IMG/VR virus record: IMGVR_UViG_3300032328_000531
Coordinates: 1 to 28,755 of that record
Length of the DNA stretch: 28,755 nt
Reading direction: 5' to 3' (one strand)
DNA from: a virus
Lineage: Duplodnaviria > Caudoviricetes
Part shown: piece after piece, positions 12,434-28,755 of the stretch
Layout: the number at the start of each line of letters is the position of its first letter
How positions within the stretch are numbered: position 1 is the stretch's first letter
Made by a program: the position numbers and the translations under genes
Notes under the pieces: generated by a model
The model's database searches: none
Told to the model about the DNA's origin: nothing
Seen by the model: the letters and a program-made list of their open reading frames with translations, nothing else

Positions 12434-12604
12434 AACGCCAAGCTTTCCTTGCGCAATAACGAACTGCGCTTTGGCTTTTACCTTGTGATAGACGGCGGCT
12501 TTCAGTCCTGCTTCTCGGGTTTCTTTTAAGTTTAGGCTAGGCACAAAAAAAGTTCCCTTGGGAGGAAGAGTCTCCCAAGGATAATAAACCTTAACTTTCT
12601 TCAT
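12413..12604 (-). CDS. Small hypothetical phage protein
   Basis: 63 aa (YPWETL...FFVPSL). Overlaps the end of the primase gene and is the last gene of the - strand block. Confidence 0.7.
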   Translation of the reverse strand: MKKVKVYYPWETLPPKGTFFVPSLNLKETREAGLKAAVYHKVKAKAQFVIAQGKLGVLFTRLH

Positions 12605-15467
12605 CTTTAGCGTCGGCTCGACGGCTAATTTTCATTACGTTAACTCGCATAGCTGGACCCCGAGTTTTGTACAAGATGTTCTTCTTTTCTAGATACTCAA
12701 TCTTATAGTCTTTCAAGGCTTCCATTTGTTTCTTAAAGTTAGAGTAACCAAAACTCATGGATACACAATGCGATCTAAGTTGCGCCTCTTCTATGTAGTA
12801 GTCAATCCAGCCGGGGGTTATATCGTGGTCAACCCTTCCGGCAACTTCTGACCTAGTTAGCGACTGATCTACCACACCACCACTACCAAGCATGGCTTCA
12901 AGATTGCCGTTAACGACTTTCACAATAACAAACTTGCCGTAGTTCTCTCGTGTGTAAGCGTTTAGGATGTCTTCAGCAGAACGACGAGCGCCAAATATAA
13001 TTACCCTAGCCCTCTGAACCATTCCACGCAGGACTTCAATAACAGGCTTAACTGGTATATCAATAACATTGGAATACTTAGAACCAAGAAGAATGACAGT
13101 AGAAATAATACAAGCGTTACCCGCAGACCAAAATCGCTCGTCATCGGTGGATTCAAGTTCTTTCTTAAGCATCGTATGCGTTTTCTTGTAAACATCAATT
13201 GCTACCTCCCTATTTTGGACTAACCAACGTATGTATCTATCGCCTGCTATGCCGTAATTCTCTTTCAACTTATCAAGGATAGCGGACTCTTCTTCACTCC
13301 ATTCCAATTTAACTGTGGGGCATTCCTCTAAAATACGCAACATTTCCGCTTGAGAAGCGTGCTTACGCATACCGCCCAAGAAGTCAAAGACGTGTGTGTT
13401 AGAGGACAAAAGCGCAATAGATTTCCAATTCAGTACGTTAAGGCGTTCTTTGTTGGCGTTGGCTTCCATACGCTCTTTGCCTTTACCTTGAGACTGATCT
13501 AGCAAGAAGATAGGCAACCACTCGAAGTCGCCTCGGTTCTTGGCGGTAATCTCATCGGTTATTAGGGGCAGACTACCTAGCATACCTTGGCGCTGTTGCA
13601 AAGCAACTGCTGATGTCGCCTGACCTACCCTGTATTTCTCAGGCTTGCCGAAGAAACTTTCTGCAATAGATAAGGCAAGTGATTTACCCGCACCCGAAGT
13701 ATCTGAACCCAAGTGGTATGTCATACCGCTAAATCCTGAGAACTCCATTAGCAACGATGCAGGACCTGCCAGACTTATGGTAAGTAGATTCCAAATGTCT
13801 CGTCTGACAAACAGGTTAATAACTTCCCGCCATTCTTCAATGCTGCCTGCTGGTTTGGTGTGCTGATTGACGTTTTCAAGTCCGGGGGTGGGGACAAACA
13901 CTCTTTTGCCGTTGGGCTGGTATATACAACTGTTATATACAAAAGCGTTGTCGTCTTGCCATCCGCAATTATTGGGAACTTTAATAGCCCTTTTGTTGGC
14001 GCTAGCCTGCTCTACGCAACCACGCACATACTCAAACAAGTTCTTGTCGTTGCCTGATCCGAATGTAGCAATGATGTTTTGGCTAGCCAAGGCTTTAACA
14101 GTCTCGTCTTTACTAACCACCGCCTTTTGGGGGAAGATAACATCGACTGCACCTTCGGGGCGAAAAGCTACCATGTGAACGCTATGCTCGCCGTTTCTAT
14201 TCAGGATGTCTACGGCAAACAAATCGTATGGCAATAGCATAACTTGTTTGCGTGCCTTTTTACCATCGTCGTCTTCTAACAACTTATCCATATAGACGCC
14301 ACCATTAGCACCATAACTAAAGCCCTTGGGTGGAACCGGTTTGGTAACTGTTGGCTTTTCTTCTTGGACATCTACAATCTCAGTTTCTTCCGGCTTAGTT
14401 TGTATCCGATCGATTACAACTTCTTTTTCGGTGTTGTCAGTCTTTAATTCTTTACCCCACACTAGCGGGTTTGTAATCTTGCCAAAGTGTGGGCAACTTG
14501 TGCAGATGCCGGGGTTCACTTCATCTAGCTTTAGGCAGGGGCTTGGACCTTTTGTACTGTTCCACTTAGCATTTATTCGGGCTTCATCATAGGGGTGCAT
14601 AGCACCAAGACGCATCGCAGCTTCGTGTCCGTCATCGCAACGTTTAGCCCATGAAACTATATTGAAGAACAAAGGCTCCATGCCGTCTTTGCTTGCGTTG
14701 TTTTTGTAATGCTCAAGCTGTCCGCATTGTTTTGTTTCTTCGATTTTGCTAAAAAACGTAGACGAGTTTTCTATTAATTTGACACTGGTCGTTCCTGTTT
14801 CTTTAGGACGCTTGCCGGGTATCAAAAGGGCGGTTTCTTCATAGCTTGTGGTTAGCCTGTCTTTAAGAATGGCGTTGATCTTATCAAGATCAAATACCCC
14901 ACCTACTACTTTAATCTTAACTGGACGTGGTTTCTCTTCTTTATAGTTGTTAGTATCAGGAACCCGTAAAACCCTCGCAGAGTCGCCGGTCACATTAAAG
15001 TCAATCTTGAAGCCTTCTTGCTTGCAAAGACGCTTTAAGTTCTCTGCAACAGGTTTCCAAACCTCTATATCAACTTCTTCTGTAAGCGCCCAATACACAT
15101 GTAAACCACCCCCACTAGATAGGATGTAAGGGGTTCCGAGGTCGTCTAACGAAGTGTTGGACAAAAAAGTATCCAGCGCCGCCGCAGCTTCGTTCTTAGT
15201 AGCATAATCCTTTCCTTCGCCACAATCAATATCTAAAAATAAGGACTTGATTTTAAGGGCATTATCCGCCACCCTCTTGCCTTTTTCCTTAAATGTTGCT
15301 AGGGCGTAGAAAGCATTGTGGTTGTTATTGCTAAATTGTATTGCTTTACTATACAAGTCCTCAATCGTGTCAACGAAGACATGTTCTTTTTTTGCTGTAC
15401 TAAGCTCACAGGCACAATAAAAACCTGAAGAGGGTAGTACAGTCGCTAGGAATTCCTGCGACTTCAT
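12591..15467 (-). CDS. DNA primase-helicase: N-terminal AEP (RepB'-like) primase, Cys-rich linker, DUF927/Cch-like helicase
   Basis: AEP motifs LFLDID, SSGGGLHVYW and ARVLRVP. Cys cluster PCLKL..CTSCPH, Walker A-like SGAGKS and Walker B-like ITDE. GGAG RBS upstream. Confidence 0.88.
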   Translation of the reverse strand: MKSQEFLATVLPSSGFYCACELSTAKKEHVFVDTIEDLYSKAIQFSNNNHNAFYALATFKEKGKRVADNALKIKSLFLDIDCGEGKDYATKNEAAAALDTFLSNTSLDDLGTPYILSSGGGLHVYWALTEEVDIEVWKPVAENLKRLCKQEGFKIDFNVTGDSARVLRVPDTNNYKEEKPRPVKIKVVGGVFDLDKINAILKDRLTTSYEETALLIPGKRPKETGTTSVKLIENSSTFFSKIEETKQCGQLEHYKNNASKDGMEPLFFNIVSWAKRCDDGHEAAMRLGAMHPYDEARINAKWNSTKGPSPCLKLDEVNPGICTSCPHFGKITNPLVWGKELKTDNTEKEVVIDRIQTKPEETEIVDVQEEKPTVTKPVPPKGFSYGANGGVYMDKLLEDDDGKKARKQVMLLPYDLFAVDILNRNGEHSVHMVAFRPEGAVDVIFPQKAVVSKDETVKALASQNIIATFGSGNDKNLFEYVRGCVEQASANKRAIKVPNNCGWQDDNAFVYNSCIYQPNGKRVFVPTPGLENVNQHTKPAGSIEEWREVINLFVRRDIWNLLTISLAGPASLLMEFSGFSGMTYHLGSDTSGAGKSLALSIAESFFGKPEKYRVGQATSAVALQQRQGMLGSLPLITDEITAKNRGDFEWLPIFLLDQSQGKGKERMEANANKERLNVLNWKSIALLSSNTHVFDFLGGMRKHASQAEMLRILEECPTVKLEWSEEESAILDKLKENYGIAGDRYIRWLVQNREVAIDVYKKTHTMLKKELESTDDERFWSAGNACIISTVILLGSKYSNVIDIPVKPVIEVLRGMVQRARVIIFGARRSAEDILNAYTRENYGKFVIVKVVNGNLEAMLGSGGVVDQSLTRSEVAGRVDHDITPGWIDYYIEEAQLRSHCVSMSFGYSNFKKQMEALKDYKIEYLEKKNILYKTRGPAMRVNVMKISRRADAKDEES

Positions 15468-15482
15468 TTAACTCTCCAAGTT

Positions 15483-15644
15483 TTAATAAGTTTTTAAACG
15501 TTGTTGCAATCTTGCCAATACTTCTTGCTGAAAACTTATCGGCATGGTTCCTGCGTTATTTAAGTGACGTTCTGCAAAATCAGCTAACTCTCGGTCAGTC
15601 AAAATCCTAGGATTCATTTGAGTGTCTATTTTATTTTCAAGCAT
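15483..15644 (-). CDS. Small hypothetical protein (start probably 15644 or 15617 rather than 15674)
   Basis: Fills the gap between the HTH and primase genes. A GAGG precedes the ATG at 15644. Confidence 0.6.
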   Translation of the reverse strand: MLENKIDTQMNPRILTDRELADFAERHLNNAGTMPISFQQEVLARLQQRLKTY

Positions 15645-15892
15645 TTTCTCATCGCCTCTTCTGCGGTATTGCATGTTTGTAGTATGTCAAGCAGTTGCTT
15701 AACTCGTTCTCTGTATGCGGGTGATACTTCAGCGCCACCAAACCAGTTATAAATCGACTGACGAGTTGCGCCTGTAAAGTTTGCTATATGTATTACCGGA
15801 TAGTCTAAATGGACTGCCCATCTCCCTAATTGATTGCCAAGCGTCTTTGGCGCTTTAGCGGTTGTTAATTTTATTTTGTCTGAATAAGGCAT
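15626..15892 (-). CDS. Helix-turn-helix DNA-binding protein (Cro/XRE-like)
   Basis: VIHIANFTGATRQSIYNWFGG is a typical HTH recognition segment. Confidence 0.8.
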   Translation of the reverse strand: MPYSDKIKLTTAKAPKTLGNQLGRWAVHLDYPVIHIANFTGATRQSIYNWFGGAEVSPAYRERVKQLLDILQTCNTAEEAMRKCLKIK

Positions 15893-15910
15893 TATGTTCT
15901 CGTTAAATAA

Positions 15911-15974
15911 GGGGGGTACTCATGGTTATAAGCGGGTAAGCCTACATGCCAGCGCTCGGCGCACCACTTTCCCC
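15911..15974 (-). ncRNA. Putative structured RNA element (three-way junction closed by a stem with a loop-E/sarcin-ricin motif)
   Basis: - strand reads GGG-GAA-A-GUGGU-[GCGC CGA GCGC]-UGGCA-[UGUAGGC UUACCC GCUUAUA]-ACCAU-G-AGUA-CCC. Nearly the whole intergenic region pairs. Confidence 0.55.
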
Positions 15975-15981
15975 AAAACTA

Positions 15982-16854
15982 TTACTCGTCGTCAGTTTCC
16001 CACTCGCCAATTACTTCGGCTAGCTTACCGGTTTTCTTAGCCGGTACTGCGTTGGGTTTAACTGCGGGTTTGCGTTTTTCAGGCTCGTCAACTTCCTCTT
16101 CAGCTTGCGCCTTGGGTGCGGCTAGTGCAGGCTTAGAGTCGCTCTTGGAAACGCTCATGGTGATAGCGTTCTTAGCTTCAGGAGTTTTCCCTTTCTTACT
16201 ACAGACTTCGTACTCGTCGTCAGTCAACCAACGCACAGGTTGGAAGAATAACTTGGGTACTGCCGCTTTAGTATCGAAGCGTAAACGAGTTACCAAAGTC
16301 TCAGGATTAATATTCTGAGCCGCTAAATAGCGTGCATACGCTTGTAATGGGCGCTTGTCGCCGTCTTCCTTACCAAAGATAGATGTTGCGGCTAGGGTTA
16401 ACTGCATTACGTCGCCTTCCATATCGTTAGCCAAAACAACTGCTAAACGCTGACTAAAACGGCATGCACGAGAATCACCTTGACCTGAACCCTTGGCATT
16501 TTGTGGGCAAGTAGCGCACGCATCAGCTTGAGGTTCTTCAATACTTGCATCAGGTTTATCGCCATCCGCAGACCAACAAGTAGGTGCAGAAGTTGCGCCT
16601 TCCTCATAAGTGCCGGCATAGAATGTACGACTAATTTTTGGTGCGGCTTGCACAATAACTACGTCAAGATGACGATCCTCAATAGCGGCTACTTCTTTAC
16701 CGCCGGCGATCAAACGGAATACACCGCCTTTCGTTGAGATGCGTTTTGTTGATGTGCCCACTCCACCGGCAAGGCTCTTAGCTAATGATGATAACTCTGC
16801 ACTTTTAGCAAAGGCTGGCAGTTTTGTGGGGTTAAATGTAGTGAGTTCTGTCAT
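15982..16854 (-). CDS. Putative single-stranded DNA-binding protein with Cys4 cluster
   Basis: Located in the replication block. Beta-rich core, C..CATC..C cluster, low-complexity linker and acidic/aromatic tail EWETDDE. AAGGA RBS. Confidence 0.6.
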   Translation of the reverse strand: MTELTTFNPTKLPAFAKSAELSSLAKSLAGGVGTSTKRISTKGGVFRLIAGGKEVAAIEDRHLDVVIVQAAPKISRTFYAGTYEEGATSAPTCWSADGDKPDASIEEPQADACATCPQNAKGSGQGDSRACRFSQRLAVVLANDMEGDVMQLTLAATSIFGKEDGDKRPLQAYARYLAAQNINPETLVTRLRFDTKAAVPKLFFQPVRWLTDDEYEVCSKKGKTPEAKNAITMSVSKSDSKPALAAPKAQAEEEVDEPEKRKPAVKPNAVPAKKTGKLAEVIGEWETDDE

Positions 16855-17115: not shown

Positions 17116-17514
17116 TTAAGTTGTAGGTTTTGTAACGGTTACGGTGTTTTCAGATAAAGAAGATAACCCCGCCGGAACCTTTCCGGGATTCTCTTCCAAA
17201 AATAAAGCCATGTTCTTCTGCGCAATACGATGCTCAAACAAATCTAGGGCGTCATTCTCAATAACAAAAGTCTTAAATGAATCCCAATCATCTGTGTAGT
17301 ATCTTGTCTTAGTAGATAGGGAAATATTGCCCCCTGCCGTCTTAACAGAATTAATTCCAAGTTGACGCATCTGATCTTTCATAGCGTTCTTGATTTCGCT
17401 TTTCTGCTCTTCAAGCTTATCTAACTGCTTCTGTATTTCTTGCGCTTTGAGGTATATCTTTCGATACACCCTTGCTAAAGTTTCTAGCGGTACTACTTCG
17501 TTTTCTTCTGACAT
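17116..17514 (-). CDS. Conserved-type phage protein, coiled-coil N-terminus (Mu Gam/Gp157-like architecture)
   Basis: N-terminal coiled coil, then SVKTAGGNISL, DWDSFKTFV and VPAGL. Strong AAAGGAG RBS. Confidence 0.6.
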   Translation of the reverse strand: MSEENEVVPLETLARVYRKIYLKAQEIQKQLDKLEEQKSEIKNAMKDQMRQLGINSVKTAGGNISLSTKTRYYTDDWDSFKTFVIENDALDLFEHRIAQKNMALFLEENPGKVPAGLSSLSENTVTVTKPTT

Positions 17515-17535
17515 CTGTTTCTCCTTTCAACGTCT

Positions 17536-17551
17536 TGTCAAAGACTTTACA
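17536..17551. promoter_or_regulatory. Putative operator, pseudo-palindrome TGTCAA-AGAC-TTTACA
   Basis: Intergenic, between a TATAGT -10-like hexamer (17569-17564, - strand) and the RBS. 12/16 identical to the site at 28606-28621. Confidence 0.5.
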
Positions 17552-17570
17552 ACAACAGCGACGACTATAC

Positions 17571-17586
17571 AACCCTAACTAGGGTT
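17571..17586. promoter_or_regulatory. Inverted repeat AACCCTA-ac-TAGGGTT upstream of a -10-like hexamer
   Basis: Perfect 7-bp arms with a 2-nt spacer (too short for an RNA hairpin loop), in intergenic DNA. Confidence 0.45.
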
Positions 17587-17591
17587 TTTAC

Positions 17592-19151
17592 TTACTGATT
17601 AACTTCTTCTTTATACAGGCTTAGTAATATATCGTGTCCTTGCACTCGTTTCTCGAGTTGCGCAAACATCTTCTTTTCTATATCACTACCCTGTAAGTGT
17701 ATCACCGTTACGTTTGTACTGGTTTGCCCAATCCGGTCTGCTCTAGCAATACACTGCAAATACGTTTCAACCGACATCACAGGTCCATAAAAGATTACTA
17801 TATCTGCCGCAGTTAATGTTACACCATGACTTGCGGCTTGCGGTTGAATTACTAGTATACGCGGATCAGGTAAAGTTTGGAAGCGCTTGAATATGTCGGT
17901 TCTTTTACCAACAGAAACATCACCATGTATGACTTCCGAGGCAATATTATTCTTGAGTAAATGAGTATGGATTGTATCTATACTGTGACGGAAGGGCGCA
18001 AAGACTATAACTTTACGGCTAGTTTCCTCAAGTACTTCCAGTAGTACATTAAGGCGAGGGGCGCAGTCAAACTCAACTACTTCCTGCCCATCAGAATAAG
18101 CCGCACCTGCCGATATTTGTAGTAACTTGCTGACTTCAGCCGCCGCATTGACCGCCGTAATAGTCTCACCAGCCGCCTGCATAACCATCTTTTCCTTAAG
18201 CAACCGGTAGTACTTCTGTTGTTGGGGCGTTAAGGGTATTTCTCGGGTCTCTGTGAGGACTGGAGGCAAGTCGGTACACTCCTCCTTAGTAAACCTAATG
18301 GCAGGCTGTAATGCGTCAAAAACAGCCTCAGCCGCCCCCTTTTTTGGCACCCATTTGAACTGGGTTAGCCGTTGCATGGTTTTATCCCTCCATGCGGTTA
18401 GAAAACGTGGAACTCCGGCGGGATTAACTAGCCTAGCCAAGCCGTAGGCATCAACAGGGGACTGCGAAGCGGGGGTTCCGGTCATCATCCATAGTTGTGT
18501 ATTTGGTTGCAGAATCTTATTAAGGGATTTCCACCGCTTAGTGCTTGGGTTTTTGTATGCGTTAGCCTCGTCCACAATTACTAGGTCAAACTTGCCGTTA
18601 GCAATTACTTCGTCAGCAATAAGATTTAACCCATCATAGTTGACGATTACGAACTCATAAGAACCTTGCACCATTTCGATACGGCGGGTTGCTTGAGAAT
18701 GGTGGGCTACGATAGCTGATCGGTGAATAATGCTTTTGCCAATACTGTTCATCCAAGCGTCGTGCATGATGGATAGGGGGCATAGAATTAAACAACGCTG
18801 TACCTGTTTGATATTCATCAAGTAATCAACCGCCCATAACGCACTAAAAGTTTTACCTGTGCCGGGGTCGTTAAATACAAATGCTCTGCGGTTTAGCGTT
18901 AGGAATTCTGCGGTATCGATTTGATGCGCAAAAGGTTTGTGCATCCCTGGAAACGCATACTTGGCTCTGATTGGTGATGGTACGTCTTTCACACCTAGGT
19001 TGCGAAGCACACGCACTTCATCTAAACCCCACCGCACCGCTACTTTGTGAACATCTCCGTAGCTTTCTACGATAGTGCTTTTGGGAATTACTGTGTACTT
19101 ATCAGGATTGCGTGTCTTAAATACTAAGGCTTTGTTTTCAATTATTTCCAT
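17592..19151 (-). CDS. SNF2-family (SF2) DNA helicase
   Basis: Motifs NDPGTGKT, IVDEAN, MMTGTP, HGVTLT and QCIARADRIGQ. Confidence 0.93.
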   Translation of the reverse strand: MEIIENKALVFKTRNPDKYTVIPKSTIVESYGDVHKVAVRWGLDEVRVLRNLGVKDVPSPIRAKYAFPGMHKPFAHQIDTAEFLTLNRRAFVFNDPGTGKTFSALWAVDYLMNIKQVQRCLILCPLSIMHDAWMNSIGKSIIHRSAIVAHHSQATRRIEMVQGSYEFVIVNYDGLNLIADEVIANGKFDLVIVDEANAYKNPSTKRWKSLNKILQPNTQLWMMTGTPASQSPVDAYGLARLVNPAGVPRFLTAWRDKTMQRLTQFKWVPKKGAAEAVFDALQPAIRFTKEECTDLPPVLTETREIPLTPQQQKYYRLLKEKMVMQAAGETITAVNAAAEVSKLLQISAGAAYSDGQEVVEFDCAPRLNVLLEVLEETSRKVIVFAPFRHSIDTIHTHLLKNNIASEVIHGDVSVGKRTDIFKRFQTLPDPRILVIQPQAASHGVTLTAADIVIFYGPVMSVETYLQCIARADRIGQTSTNVTVIHLQGSDIEKKMFAQLEKRVQGHDILLSLYKEEVNQ

Positions 19152-22282: not shown

Positions 22283-22503
22283 TAACAACGCCCATCTAGA
22301 TCAATTTCTTTAGACTTCTTTTTCTTTTTAGCTGGTTTAATTTCAGCCATCTGTTCTTCCGTAGCGTATTTACCTATCGCATTTTCAAGCATGGCAACCA
22401 TACCCCATTGAATCAAGGTTTGCATACCTAACTTATCAAAAGTAATTTTTGCATCGGCAGAGCCGTCTTCGTGTTCTTTAGTAATCTTAATTTCTATTTT
22501 CAT
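22282..22503 (-). CDS. Hypothetical protein
   Basis: 73 aa (KEHEDGSAD), coupled on both sides. Confidence 0.75.
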   Translation of the reverse strand: MKIEIKITKEHEDGSADAKITFDKLGMQTLIQWGMVAMLENAIGKYATEEQMAEIKPAKKKKKSKEIDLDGRC

Positions 22504-22670
22504 TTTCTTTCCTCATCGTATTTAGTAATCCATTGCAACGCAAGCGTTAGTGTATTAAATGTCGGGGATTTTATCTGCCCATTTTCCCAATAATAACTAG
22601 GTGTGTCAGACACATGCCAAGTATCCCCAACCCACTTGGCAGTCCTTTCATGGATTGTTTGTAAGTTCAT
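22500..22670 (-). CDS. Small hypothetical protein not in the ORF track (56 aa, MNLQTIHERTAKWVGDTW...YDEERK)
   Basis: Translated by hand. ATG lies 2 nt after the previous stop, and TGA overlaps the next ATG (ATGA), exactly filling the gap. Confidence 0.7.
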   Translation of the reverse strand: MNLQTIHERTAKWVGDTWHVSDTPSYYWENGQIKSPTFNTLTLALQWITKYDEERK

Positions 22671-22672
22671 TT

Positions 22673-22909
22673 CTAGTTTATTGTCCTGTTTTCAAGTTGG
22701 TTTAAAACTCGTTGCCCAATCTCGGATGCCGTTTCGGTTAACAAAAGAGGCACTTCCATCTCGTCAATGTTTAGCCCCAATACTTTTACTGTGTTGGTTT
22801 CGCTATTGGCAAACACAACTACGATAGACACATTTGCGTCGCCCTCTGCTTCAGAAATAGAATCTTTTATCTTATCAATCGCTAGGTCTTGCGTCATTAA
22901 TGTTTCCAT
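22673..22909 (-). CDS. Hypothetical protein
   Basis: 78-aa ORF in the operon, overlapping the VRR-NUC end. Confidence 0.7.
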   Translation of the reverse strand: METLMTQDLAIDKIKDSISEAEGDANVSIVVVFANSETNTVKVLGLNIDEMEVPLLLTETASEIGQRVLNQLENRTIN

Positions 22910-27404: not shown

Positions 27405-28526
27405 TTATTTGCCTGTGAAGTAAATCTTGTTATCTTGCAACATGCTTTGGAACTCAGTAACAGTCACGAAGTTAGTGACACGACTAGACTGCGCTAAGTT
27501 ATTACAGAACATCGACTGCATCTCCTTACGCATACGCTTGACATAGATACATACCGACTCGGCTTGCTCTCGTGTATTGGTTTGTGTAATACATTTGAGA
27601 ACTGTAATGATCTGTGCAACAGGATTGCTAGGCACAGGGCATTTGCTTGGGTCAGATACTATGCGATTGTATGGCTCGGTCTGCTCACCGAACTTGATGA
27701 AAGCATGAAGTGACTCGGCACTTGACGCACCGATTGTGCCTGTGAGTGATGCCATAAGAGAGTCGTTGTCCATGTGGTCTTTCTCATACACAATGTCAGA
27801 TGCGGCATGCAGACTGCGAGGAGTTACATAAGATGTTTGCGCAATCGCAGGGTTGAAGATGTGGGTGTTGTGACCTTCTTGATTCTGACCATGATACTTA
27901 CCGCCATTTTGGTAGTCCAAGAAACTGTCGAACAACTGCTCTTCTAACTCATCAGTCCATGCGATAACCTCGGGGGCAATACCCTTGTCGAGTGCCCACT
28001 CACGCCATTCCTTTTGGGTTGGCTTACGCATTTTGACGAACACCAAACGATTACGCAGATGAGCCTGAATGTTATCGCCCAATCCCTCGACACCTAGGTT
28101 AGTAGCACAGAACACCACGCTGTTCTCAGGTAACTCGTAGTTACCAACACGACGCTCGTAAACGATTGGTGCAAGAACATCTTTGATGAACTGCTTGGCT
28201 TTGGCAATCTCATCGAGGAATATCAGGGCGGGTCTACTGCCATTGACACCTCGTTGGTTGTCACGATTAACACCGAACCTCTCGTTAGGTAACTCACGAG
28301 ATACACCCATCTCCCGATCAATGTCGGGCATCCACACCGAGCCGTCAGATAACTGCGTGCAATCAATAGGCTTGACATGAATGTGGTTGGCAAAGTGTGG
28401 GTCATTGGCTAGTGCATAGAACAAACCGGTCTTACCGATACCATTCTCGCCCTCAACAATGATGGTGCGCTTGTGACCGATTGCCTTGACGAGTTGTGAA
28501 ACTTGCTTGAATGAAAGCATTGACAT
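27405..28526 (-). CDS. MoxR-like AAA+ ATPase
   Basis: Walker A GENGIGKT, Walker B IFLDE, sensor I ATN, Arg finger LRNR and sensor II TPRS. Confidence 0.9.
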   Translation of the reverse strand: MSMLSFKQVSQLVKAIGHKRTIIVEGENGIGKTGLFYALANDPHFANHIHVKPIDCTQLSDGSVWMPDIDREMGVSRELPNERFGVNRDNQRGVNGSRPALIFLDEIAKAKQFIKDVLAPIVYERRVGNYELPENSVVFCATNLGVEGLGDNIQAHLRNRLVFVKMRKPTQKEWREWALDKGIAPEVIAWTDELEEQLFDSFLDYQNGGKYHGQNQEGHNTHIFNPAIAQTSYVTPRSLHAASDIVYEKDHMDNDSLMASLTGTIGASSAESLHAFIKFGEQTEPYNRIVSDPSKCPVPSNPVAQIITVLKCITQTNTREQAESVCIYVKRMRKEMQSMFCNNLAQSSRVTNFVTVTEFQSMLQDNKIYFTGK

Positions 28527-28605
28527 AATTAATACCTTTCGTTAGTTGGTACTACATTTAGTAGAGTGATACTACATATTGTTGTTTTACTTAATGATAC
28601 TGCCA

Positions 28606-28621
28606 AGTCAAATACTAGACA
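28606..28621. promoter_or_regulatory. Putative operator/-35 overlap (- strand TGTCTAGTATTTGACT)
   Basis: Pseudo-palindrome matching the 17536-17551 site at 12/16. Contains TTGACT, with TAAAAC 16 nt downstream, ahead of the AAA operon. Confidence 0.45.
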
Positions 28622-28646
28622 CCTCCTTTCGTATTGGGATAAACCC

Positions 28647-28754
28647 TTAGTAATAAAACTTGCGTGGAATGGTGGGTTGAAACTGCCCCCATGCCGTTCT
28701 CTCTGTGCCTGTCTTGATGCCTACCATATCAAGCACCTTGTTTGTTAACGACTT
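28647..28754 (-). CDS. 3' end of an upstream gene (…KSLTNKVLDMVGIKTGTERTAWGQFQPTIPRKFYY*), truncated by window edge
   Basis: Open frame from the window end to TAA at 28649-28647, on the same strand as the early block. Confidence 0.5.
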   Translation of the reverse strand, partial: KSLTNKVLDMVGIKTGTERTAWGQFQPTIPRKFYY

Positions 28755-28755
28755 A

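Follow-up and report, generated by a model that had tools for sequence, protein, structure and literature searches.

What is the compact structured element that lies between a candidate single-stranded DNA-binding protein (SSB) gene and a candidate helix-turn-helix (HTH) gene on the minus strand of the viral record IMGVR_UViG_3300032328_000531? The window analysed here, a stretch of 28,755 nt, comes from an uncultured phage. A first-pass annotation had described the element as an unannotated structured RNA with a loop-E (sarcin-ricin) module and a three-way junction, and had offered several functions for it. By comparison with other phages, the conserved unit is a stalk, composed of an outer stem, a GAA/AGUA loop-E module and an inner stem, followed by RCC (R, purine; mostly ACC). 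The stalk family is real, widespread and apparently undescribed. At a probability of roughly 0.5, we consider the element to be a stalk copy that forms a likely small-RNA gene, released by host RNase P, with an exchangeable interior (the cargo) that would act in trans.

The conserved stalk and the interior of the window copy

Comparative data support the stalk and its loop E. Among 117 unique matches to a stalk pattern, scored at positions that the pattern leaves free, the lengths of the G-run and the C-run co-vary (45 long/long, 67 short/short, 5 discordant), and inner pairs 1 and 2 are maintained in 111 and 110, respectively. A second and unselected set was obtained with a pattern in which AGUA could not be followed by C and the 5' side was unconstrained; it comprises 110 unique variants (about 560 estimated), in which outer pairs 1-4 are maintained in 108, 105, 107 and 103 cases, as C-G, U-G, U-A, G-C and A-U pairs. 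The first inner pair is G-U in 40 of the 117, and a U-G pair occurs in 19 of the 110. A third tally (95% paired) is partly circular, since its members had been pre-filtered for pairing, and agrees with the unselected sets. The sense strand is the better-folding strand in 242 of 276 unique elements.

The two strands of the loop-E module occur together. From 160 loci found via the two proteins that flank the element, we obtained 91 unique SSB-HTH spacers, window included, of which 32 hold a bare G/C hairpin and 53 a long form, while 6 were left unclassed as other genes intervene. Of the 53 long forms, 37 have both GAA and AGUA, 13 have neither, and 3 have one without the other. With covarying pairs on its flanks and two co-occurring strands, the loop-E module proposed initially is supported, as are the structured element and its reading on the sense strand. 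Long forms that lack loop E, and that carry the RCC end and a conserved interior of their own in the same slot, were seen at L015, L034, L035, L040, L041, L044, L103 and L157.

All pieces named in the first-pass annotation are present on the minus strand of the window. The element begins just after the upstream stop, with a gap of 7 nt, and 21 nt separate the end of its stem from the start codon (ATG) of the HTH gene. The 5' arm of the outer stem, GGG (15972..15974), pairs with the 3' arm CCC (15914..15916) and gives 3 bp, compared to the usual 4-6 in the family. Next come GAAA (15968..15971) and the opposing GAGUA (15917..15921), which form a 4x5 internal loop; this asymmetric loop, flanked by Watson-Crick helices and with AGUA facing GAA, corresponds to the standard sarcin-ricin motif (PMC8450098). 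The inner stem, GUGGU (15963..15967) with ACCAU (15922..15926), closes the cargo (15927..15962), a three-way junction made of a hairpin (15962-15952), a 5-nt linker and a second hairpin (15946-15927). G15974, preceded by U at -1, is the predicted +1 base for RNase P. The 3' tail CCC (15911..15913) is a degenerate tRNA-like end where the family has ACC or GCC, and retains two C's of the RCC.

A covariance model built from 57 members, with the window and its near-identical relatives left out of training, returned the element as its best match in the window (21.8 bits, rough E 0.0012; second-best site E 0.39). Folding of the element alone gave a minimum free energy of -22.2 kcal/mol, which is not above chance (z 0.02; 94 of 200 shuffles equally good), and pair probabilities of about 0.43 for the first hairpin and about 0.9 for the second. 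The interior occurs in near-identical phages only, according to three scans, one of which covered 25 of 64 collection parts. It accounts for 4 of 6 loci in one scan, and elsewhere closure by a stalk was seen for one of the 67 and one of the 106 unique matches. Its sole variant changes G15942 to A and so turns a G-U pair into A-U, and the window cargo has no tRNA likeness. With this z-score and a private interior, the three-way junction is not supported as a conserved unit. Because long-form interiors differ completely and that of the window is private, we regard the junction as cargo and the stalk as the family trait.

The RCC end and predicted release by RNase P

Among the pattern matches, ACC directly follows the C-run in 91 of 117 and GCC in 4, so that RCC is found in 95. 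N-2 is never G among these 95, from which the leader appears to avoid pairing with RCC (an anti-determinant). In the unselected set, RCC follows the stem in 72 of the 110 variants, and +1 is G in 66 of those 72. In the SSB-HTH slot, RCC is present on 47 of the 53 long forms, whether these have loop E or not, versus 0 of the 32 bare hairpins (p 1e-17). A further tally of 235/276 is partly selected and is not used as evidence.

RNase P is reported to pair with RCC, to prefer G at +1 and to be hindered if the leader pairs with RCC (PMC10731613). Hairpin-like substrates that lack a T loop include 4.5S, M3, P4 CI and P1/P7 C4 RNAs (PMC5499578). On the RCC contrast, these preferences and the T-loop-free substrates, we infer that the long forms would be cut free as stable small RNAs. 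The family has a helix starting at G(+1) followed by a 3' RCC, as expected for an RNase P substrate; the window copy, with its 3-bp stem and CCC, departs from this.

The course of events that we propose begins with transcription of the element within the replication operon, as part of an early mRNA. Host RNase P would then cut on the 5' side before the first G, and trimming would leave RCC at the 3' end, in the way that 4.5S, C4 and CI RNAs mature. Loop E would provide a rigid or protein-bound neck, and the position behind the SSB gene would lead to a high copy number of the RNA. The cargo, swapped by recombination within the conserved arms, would act in trans once released, probably titrating some host factor as a decoy or sponge. 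The 'small ncRNA' that the first-pass annotation had listed as an alternative becomes the better reading.

Distribution, neighbouring genes and cargo diversity

The stalk occurs in hundreds of unrelated phages and in some Burkholderiales genomes. The stalk pattern was found at 121 viral loci in 5 of the 64 collection parts, which corresponds to about 1800 overall, chance matches included. The covariance model detected one copy per genome in four of five near-complete genomes, and the fifth has the loop-E-less form. A second match in one of these genomes (G007) was rejected, as it is apparently coding sequence and has no inner stem. Two cultured phages carry the inner scaffold: loop E is part of it in Bordetella phage vB_BaM-IFTN6 but not in Alcaligenes phage CASP1. 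Bacterial carriers are four Cupriavidus loci, Bordetella and Marinibactrum; since only 3 of 401 genomes of the bacterial family carry the element, it is not a core host gene. Two further scans returned chiefly chance matches: the outer stem is paired in 26 of 116 matches from a loose metagenome scan, and an inner-pair filter was passed by 27 of 101 matches from a genome scan, about ten of which have a clear scaffold.

A same-strand open reading frame (ORF) precedes 244 of the 276 elements, with a median gap of 6 nt. Directly upstream of 152 lies an SSB or SSB-like gene from one of nine protein clusters, and among the other 124 elements, 50 have such a gene in the available upstream DNA. The largest upstream cluster (50 elements), to which the window's own protein belongs, is inflated by the search design. 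Four clusters (57 elements) have a library-based SSB label (PF00436, PF10991, DUF669/phrog_6015, phrog_18154/7364). The other five have no label, except that one is annotated as a nucleotidyltransferase, and only their acidic tail, fold or position makes them SSB-like. On the downstream side, 220 proteins fall into 85 clusters, and an HTH gene is nearby in 22 of 122 scaffold matches; an element specific to HTH or primase genes, as the first-pass annotation had implied, is not what these neighbourhoods indicate. The stem ends at a median of 18 nt before the downstream ATG. Outside the window's phage group, the downstream gene most often codes for a function-unknown phrog_1123 protein of 100-120 aa (the L196 cluster, 32 proteins).

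Some copies are arrayed in tandem or neighbour tRNA genes. Gene-free tandem units, each ending in ACC, occur at L200 (three units), L169, L228, L248 and L192; these are the 5 loci judged real by eye out of 13 flagged among 218. Copies within about 130 nt of tRNA genes were found in IFTN6, CASP1 and L1041, and 1 of 411 metagenomic loci has a tRNA.

Cargos are diverse and are exchanged. The 222 interiors form 154 clusters, a few of which are chance matches, and several cargo families recur beneath different outer stems and neighbours. One SSB clade (99% support) has four slot contents, namely a bare hairpin and three cargos, and branches with strong support must carry no fewer than 7 changes to explain the distribution of cargo C (both from a quick tree). 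A 29-nt block of cargo C is almost invariant across SSBs that are 66-89% identical to that of the window. Type C cargos are found at L003, L004, L036, L097, L125, L127 and L131; judged by eye, an H-type pseudoknot could arise in them through pairing of the hairpin loop with a 4-mer that lies downstream.

Likeness to tRNA is clear for one cargo. That at L220:1212-1279 scores 27.7 bits with the tRNA model (cut-off 29), with z 6.7 against host tRNAs, and is predicted to be a decayed tRNA-like cloverleaf, the one clear tRNA-derived cargo among 194. This sub-threshold match is also the only exception to the outcome of an Rfam comparison, in which no family was found on the element in the window or at member loci. 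In a comparison with 30 tRNAs from 30 of 49 loci, 8 of the 194 cargos beat all shuffles in sense and 5 in antisense. Mimicry of rRNA was rejected as a general rule, as cargos share 21 10-mers with Cupriavidus 16S/23S compared to 18.8±3.7 after shuffling (163 cargos); in antisense, the same cargos share 20 versus 14.5±3.0, equal to the shuffle maximum. A slight excess of direct 8-10-mer repeats was seen with GC not controlled. GGAG and AGGA are rarer in cargo (19 versus 35.7±5.5 and 19 versus 31.8±4.8). The cargos of L264, L189, L224, L569, L575, L604 and L605 share a covarying 5-bp stem with a 7-nt loop that resembles a CAU anticodon loop; it is our guess that this family may be a decoy for anticodon nucleases.

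In the window, the gene upstream of the element (15982..16854, minus strand) codes for a 290-aa protein with an acidic tail, four invariant Cys and a weak likeness to the oligonucleotide-binding (OB) fold; it corresponds to phrog_27714, a PHROG of unknown function. A VIA list computed with its low-confidence structure model (pLDDT 52) holds mostly OB-fold binders of single-stranded DNA (ssDNA), such as T4 gp32 (Z 4.6) and BRCA2 (Z 5.1), and has a phiC31 integrase-RDF (recombination directionality factor) fusion as its top row (Z 6.3). A Foldseek search with the model gave no match at E<=0.001. The protein is probably an SSB, a label that we draw from weak evidence of this kind. Equally weak is the basis for the 88-aa downstream protein (15626..15892, minus strand), which had no match in Pfam and PHROG searches; its ESM look-alike clusters carry HTH_23 (24%) and HTH_3 (28%), and it is probably an HTH protein. 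Farther downstream lies a primase/helicase-like gene with DUF927 (12591..15467, minus strand; Pfam/PHROG scans), and the window also codes for PolA, an SNF2 helicase and an exonuclease. The phage is distantly related to Rollin, Xp15 and KPP25 (upstream protein about 30-34% identity).

Several other features were observed around the elements. Further minus-strand spacers with hairpins are located in the window at 17514-17592, 22503-22673 and 28526-28755, the last of which resembles a promoter-bearing leader. Between the SSB gene and the element there is often a short ORF of about 45-70 aa that is rich in Cys, with a hydrophobic N-terminus and paired Cys; it directly precedes 20 elements, has no Pfam or PHROG match, and was seen at L021, L024, L027, L034, L040, L094, L099, L103-L108, L111, L114, L132, L141, L157 and in the L472/L181 cluster. 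In IFTN6 (OM293955.1, L817:3170-3243), an unannotated tRNA gene is found just past the element, with Burkholderiales-2 and C4 RNAs within about 2 kb of it. CASP1 (OR960973.1, L819:2200-3084) has an ORF-free stretch of 880 nt before tRNA-Met and tRNA-Arg, which apparently contains several structured RNA modules, some with cargo-like words. More conserved-looking structured non-coding units lie directly downstream of the element or a tRNA at L161, L270, L074, L1039 and L1040; those that were scanned had no Rfam match.

Competing readings, related systems and significance

Several observations weigh against release of a trans-acting RNA. Cargo is dispensable, because 32 of the 91 SSB-HTH spacers hold only a bare hairpin, and 38 of the 110 unselected variants are devoid of RCC by the rule used. 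The outer stem has 4-6 bp, followed by a non-canonical loop, and is thus shorter than an acceptor stem; IFTN6, L559 and L1041 have other flanking sequence in its place. The window copy, with its 3-bp stem and CCC instead of RCC (both also found in near-identical contigs), is among the weakest family members and, with a stalk so weakened, may be processed poorly. In silico, a slipped 4-bp register (-21.6) is preferred over the loop-E register (-19.8), under a nearest-neighbour model that has no loop-E term. Both predicted cut sites lie within the sole metatranscriptome contig, X1 (151 nt, 15871-16021), which is therefore a precursor or DNA. No processed RNA was seen among the assembled contigs of four runs, which cover small shares and carry neither ends nor strand, and type C cargo has no coverage in assembled expression contigs.

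Nor has a target emerged. General tRNA mimicry was not supported, with one clear case among 194 cargos, and anti-Shine-Dalgarno words are not enriched in cargos. With G-U pairs disallowed, complements to the cargo within ±600 nt were close to expectation for 135 representatives (9-mers, 18 versus 15.6±3.9; 8-mers, 60 versus 52.8±3.7), and cis targets in the window and four genomes were no better than shuffles, except for one 13-mer at 3/100.

The main rival, which is not exclusive of a released RNA and which we judge unlikely though well worth keeping in view, is that the stalk punctuates the mRNA in cis. By serving as a site of processing or of 3' protection, it would separate the output of the abundant SSB message from that of the replication genes downstream, and the interior would be tolerated or would only tune stability. 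The position behind SSB genes, directly in 152 of 276 cases and with 50 more in upstream DNA, speaks for it, as do the bare hairpins that fill the same slot in about a third of the spacers. RNase P also cuts mRNAs, among them T4 gene 32 (PMC11143913) and hisCD (PMC10731613). What punctuation leaves unexplained are the near-invariant cargo families in distant phages, the gene-free tandem arrays and the copies in tRNA clusters; moreover, the 5' cut would presumably remove the 3' stem from the SSB message. The proposal of the first-pass annotation that the element sets the level of SSB relative to downstream expression survives as this rival and not as the best reading.

A translational switch or attenuator for the downstream gene, sensed by SSB, the HTH protein or a ligand, is improbable. 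The median distance of 18 nt between stem and ATG would suit it, and including the element lowers the predicted unpaired probability of the ribosome-binding window (0.72 without it, 0.57 with it; n=214); in the window itself, however, the ribosome-binding site remains open (0.72), and the 3' strand pairs with its own ribosome-binding site no better than with permuted ones (-1.79 versus -1.95±0.05). The 85 clusters among 220 downstream proteins and the non-homologous upstream proteins also argue against a shared regulatory circuit. An attenuator of the terminator type finds a T-rich tail in merely 41 of 276 elements, and no intrinsic terminator was called at the window site.

Similarly improbable is a recombination joint, or neutral filler, in which the RNA fold would be secondary. 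Small genes insert beside the element and slot contents are swapped, much as modules are exchanged at the intergenic stem-loops of the PeSL cassettes of T4-type phages (PMC2839356). PeSLs, however, are present in many copies per genome with promoter and terminator (PMC2839356), whereas our element was single-copy in four of the five near-complete genomes (the loop-E-less form in the fifth), has neither signal on the sense strand, and has its own interior swapped. Compensatory changes break the identity of the arms yet preserve the pairs.

The ribosomal sarcin-ricin loop has its module, which in itself defines no RNA family, beneath a GNRA tetraloop. A decoy of this loop for ribosome-targeting defence toxins or elongation factors is suggested by the exact 4x5 GAA/AGUA module, kept or lost as a unit, but is very improbable: the stalk has its open 5'/3' end where the ribosomal loop has the tetraloop, the 13 of 53 long forms without loop E still keep the end, and the cargo is left unexplained. 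Least probable is the ssDNA hairpin priming signal or origin element that had been suggested for the primase, as its place in a replication module near SSB and primase genes is outweighed by frequent G-U pairs, the RNA-specific bulged-G module, better folding of the sense strand, a weak DNA fold of the window copy (-8.1, z 0.29), copies in tRNA clusters and unrelated neighbours.

Among known systems, the C4 RNA of P1/P7 (RF01695) and the CI RNA of P4 are likewise operon-embedded phage small RNAs with a paired stalk and apical loops, and the window's stalk with two hairpins has the outline that we recall for them. Both lack a T loop and are nonetheless processed by RNase P (PMC10731613, PMC5499578); for the stalk family, such processing is a prediction. 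Unlike them, the element has no RF01695 match and no complementary target nearby, and the family has a loop-E neck, SSB linkage and more than 150 cargo clusters; IFTN6 carries a separate C4 RNA 2 kb from the element. The rod-like end, G at +1 and RCC/CCC 3' end of 4.5S (signal recognition particle, SRP) RNA and phi80 M3 RNA (PMC5499578) resemble the stalk; RF00169 did not match the element, and the scaffold is not present in the SRP RNAs of three possible hosts. The anti-sRNAs (small RNAs) AgvB and AsxR of enterohaemorrhagic Escherichia coli prophages combine a conserved scaffold with a variable targeting part in a conserved slot and act in trans on host RNAs (PMC4104026). They are Hfq-bound primary transcripts of 51-60 nt with a variable 5' end and a conserved 3' part (PMC4104026), whereas the variable part of our element is internal, structured and closed by a stalk with RCC, with no promoter or U-tail. 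Burkholderiales-2 (RF02917) is present in a carrier phage, and its consensus has two short words that recur among cargos; at 17 loci picked mostly for these words, RF02917 had no match at E<=2. The SSB-associated STAXI motif (PMC2864571) is a tandem pseudoknot and does not match the element. On these comparisons, we classify the stalk family as a variant of RNase P-type phage small RNAs, with a predicted function.

A literature search, with most subscription papers outside its scope, returned no description of the stalk family. Four scaffold words had no match in six supplementary files of PMC10690425, the remaining three of which might hold alignments; the claim of novelty is limited by the chance that a stalk model sits in the remaining supplements of PMC10690425 or PMC5737381.

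The accessory functions of phages are catalogued almost solely as proteins. Even if the stalk were only a processing or stability element, it would be an undescribed and very widespread means of setting SSB levels. If it is released, an RNA carrier of constant, covarying structure, linked to several unrelated SSB families and loaded with a large set of exchangeable cargos, would reveal a concealed layer of RNA effectors in phages and would offer a natural scaffold on which to express short RNAs in Betaproteobacteria; cultured carriers exist in Cupriavidus genomes and in phage vB_BaM-IFTN6. Tentatively, and with more doubt than confidence, we extend this to an 'RNA moron' system, in which a host-processed carrier stalk behind a highly expressed SSB gene would present a swappable library of more than 150 RNA effectors, including defence-nuclease decoys, sRNA sponges and tRNA look-alikes. 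Phages would then possess an RNA-level repertoire for counter-defence and host takeover comparable to anti-CRISPR or moron gene slots.
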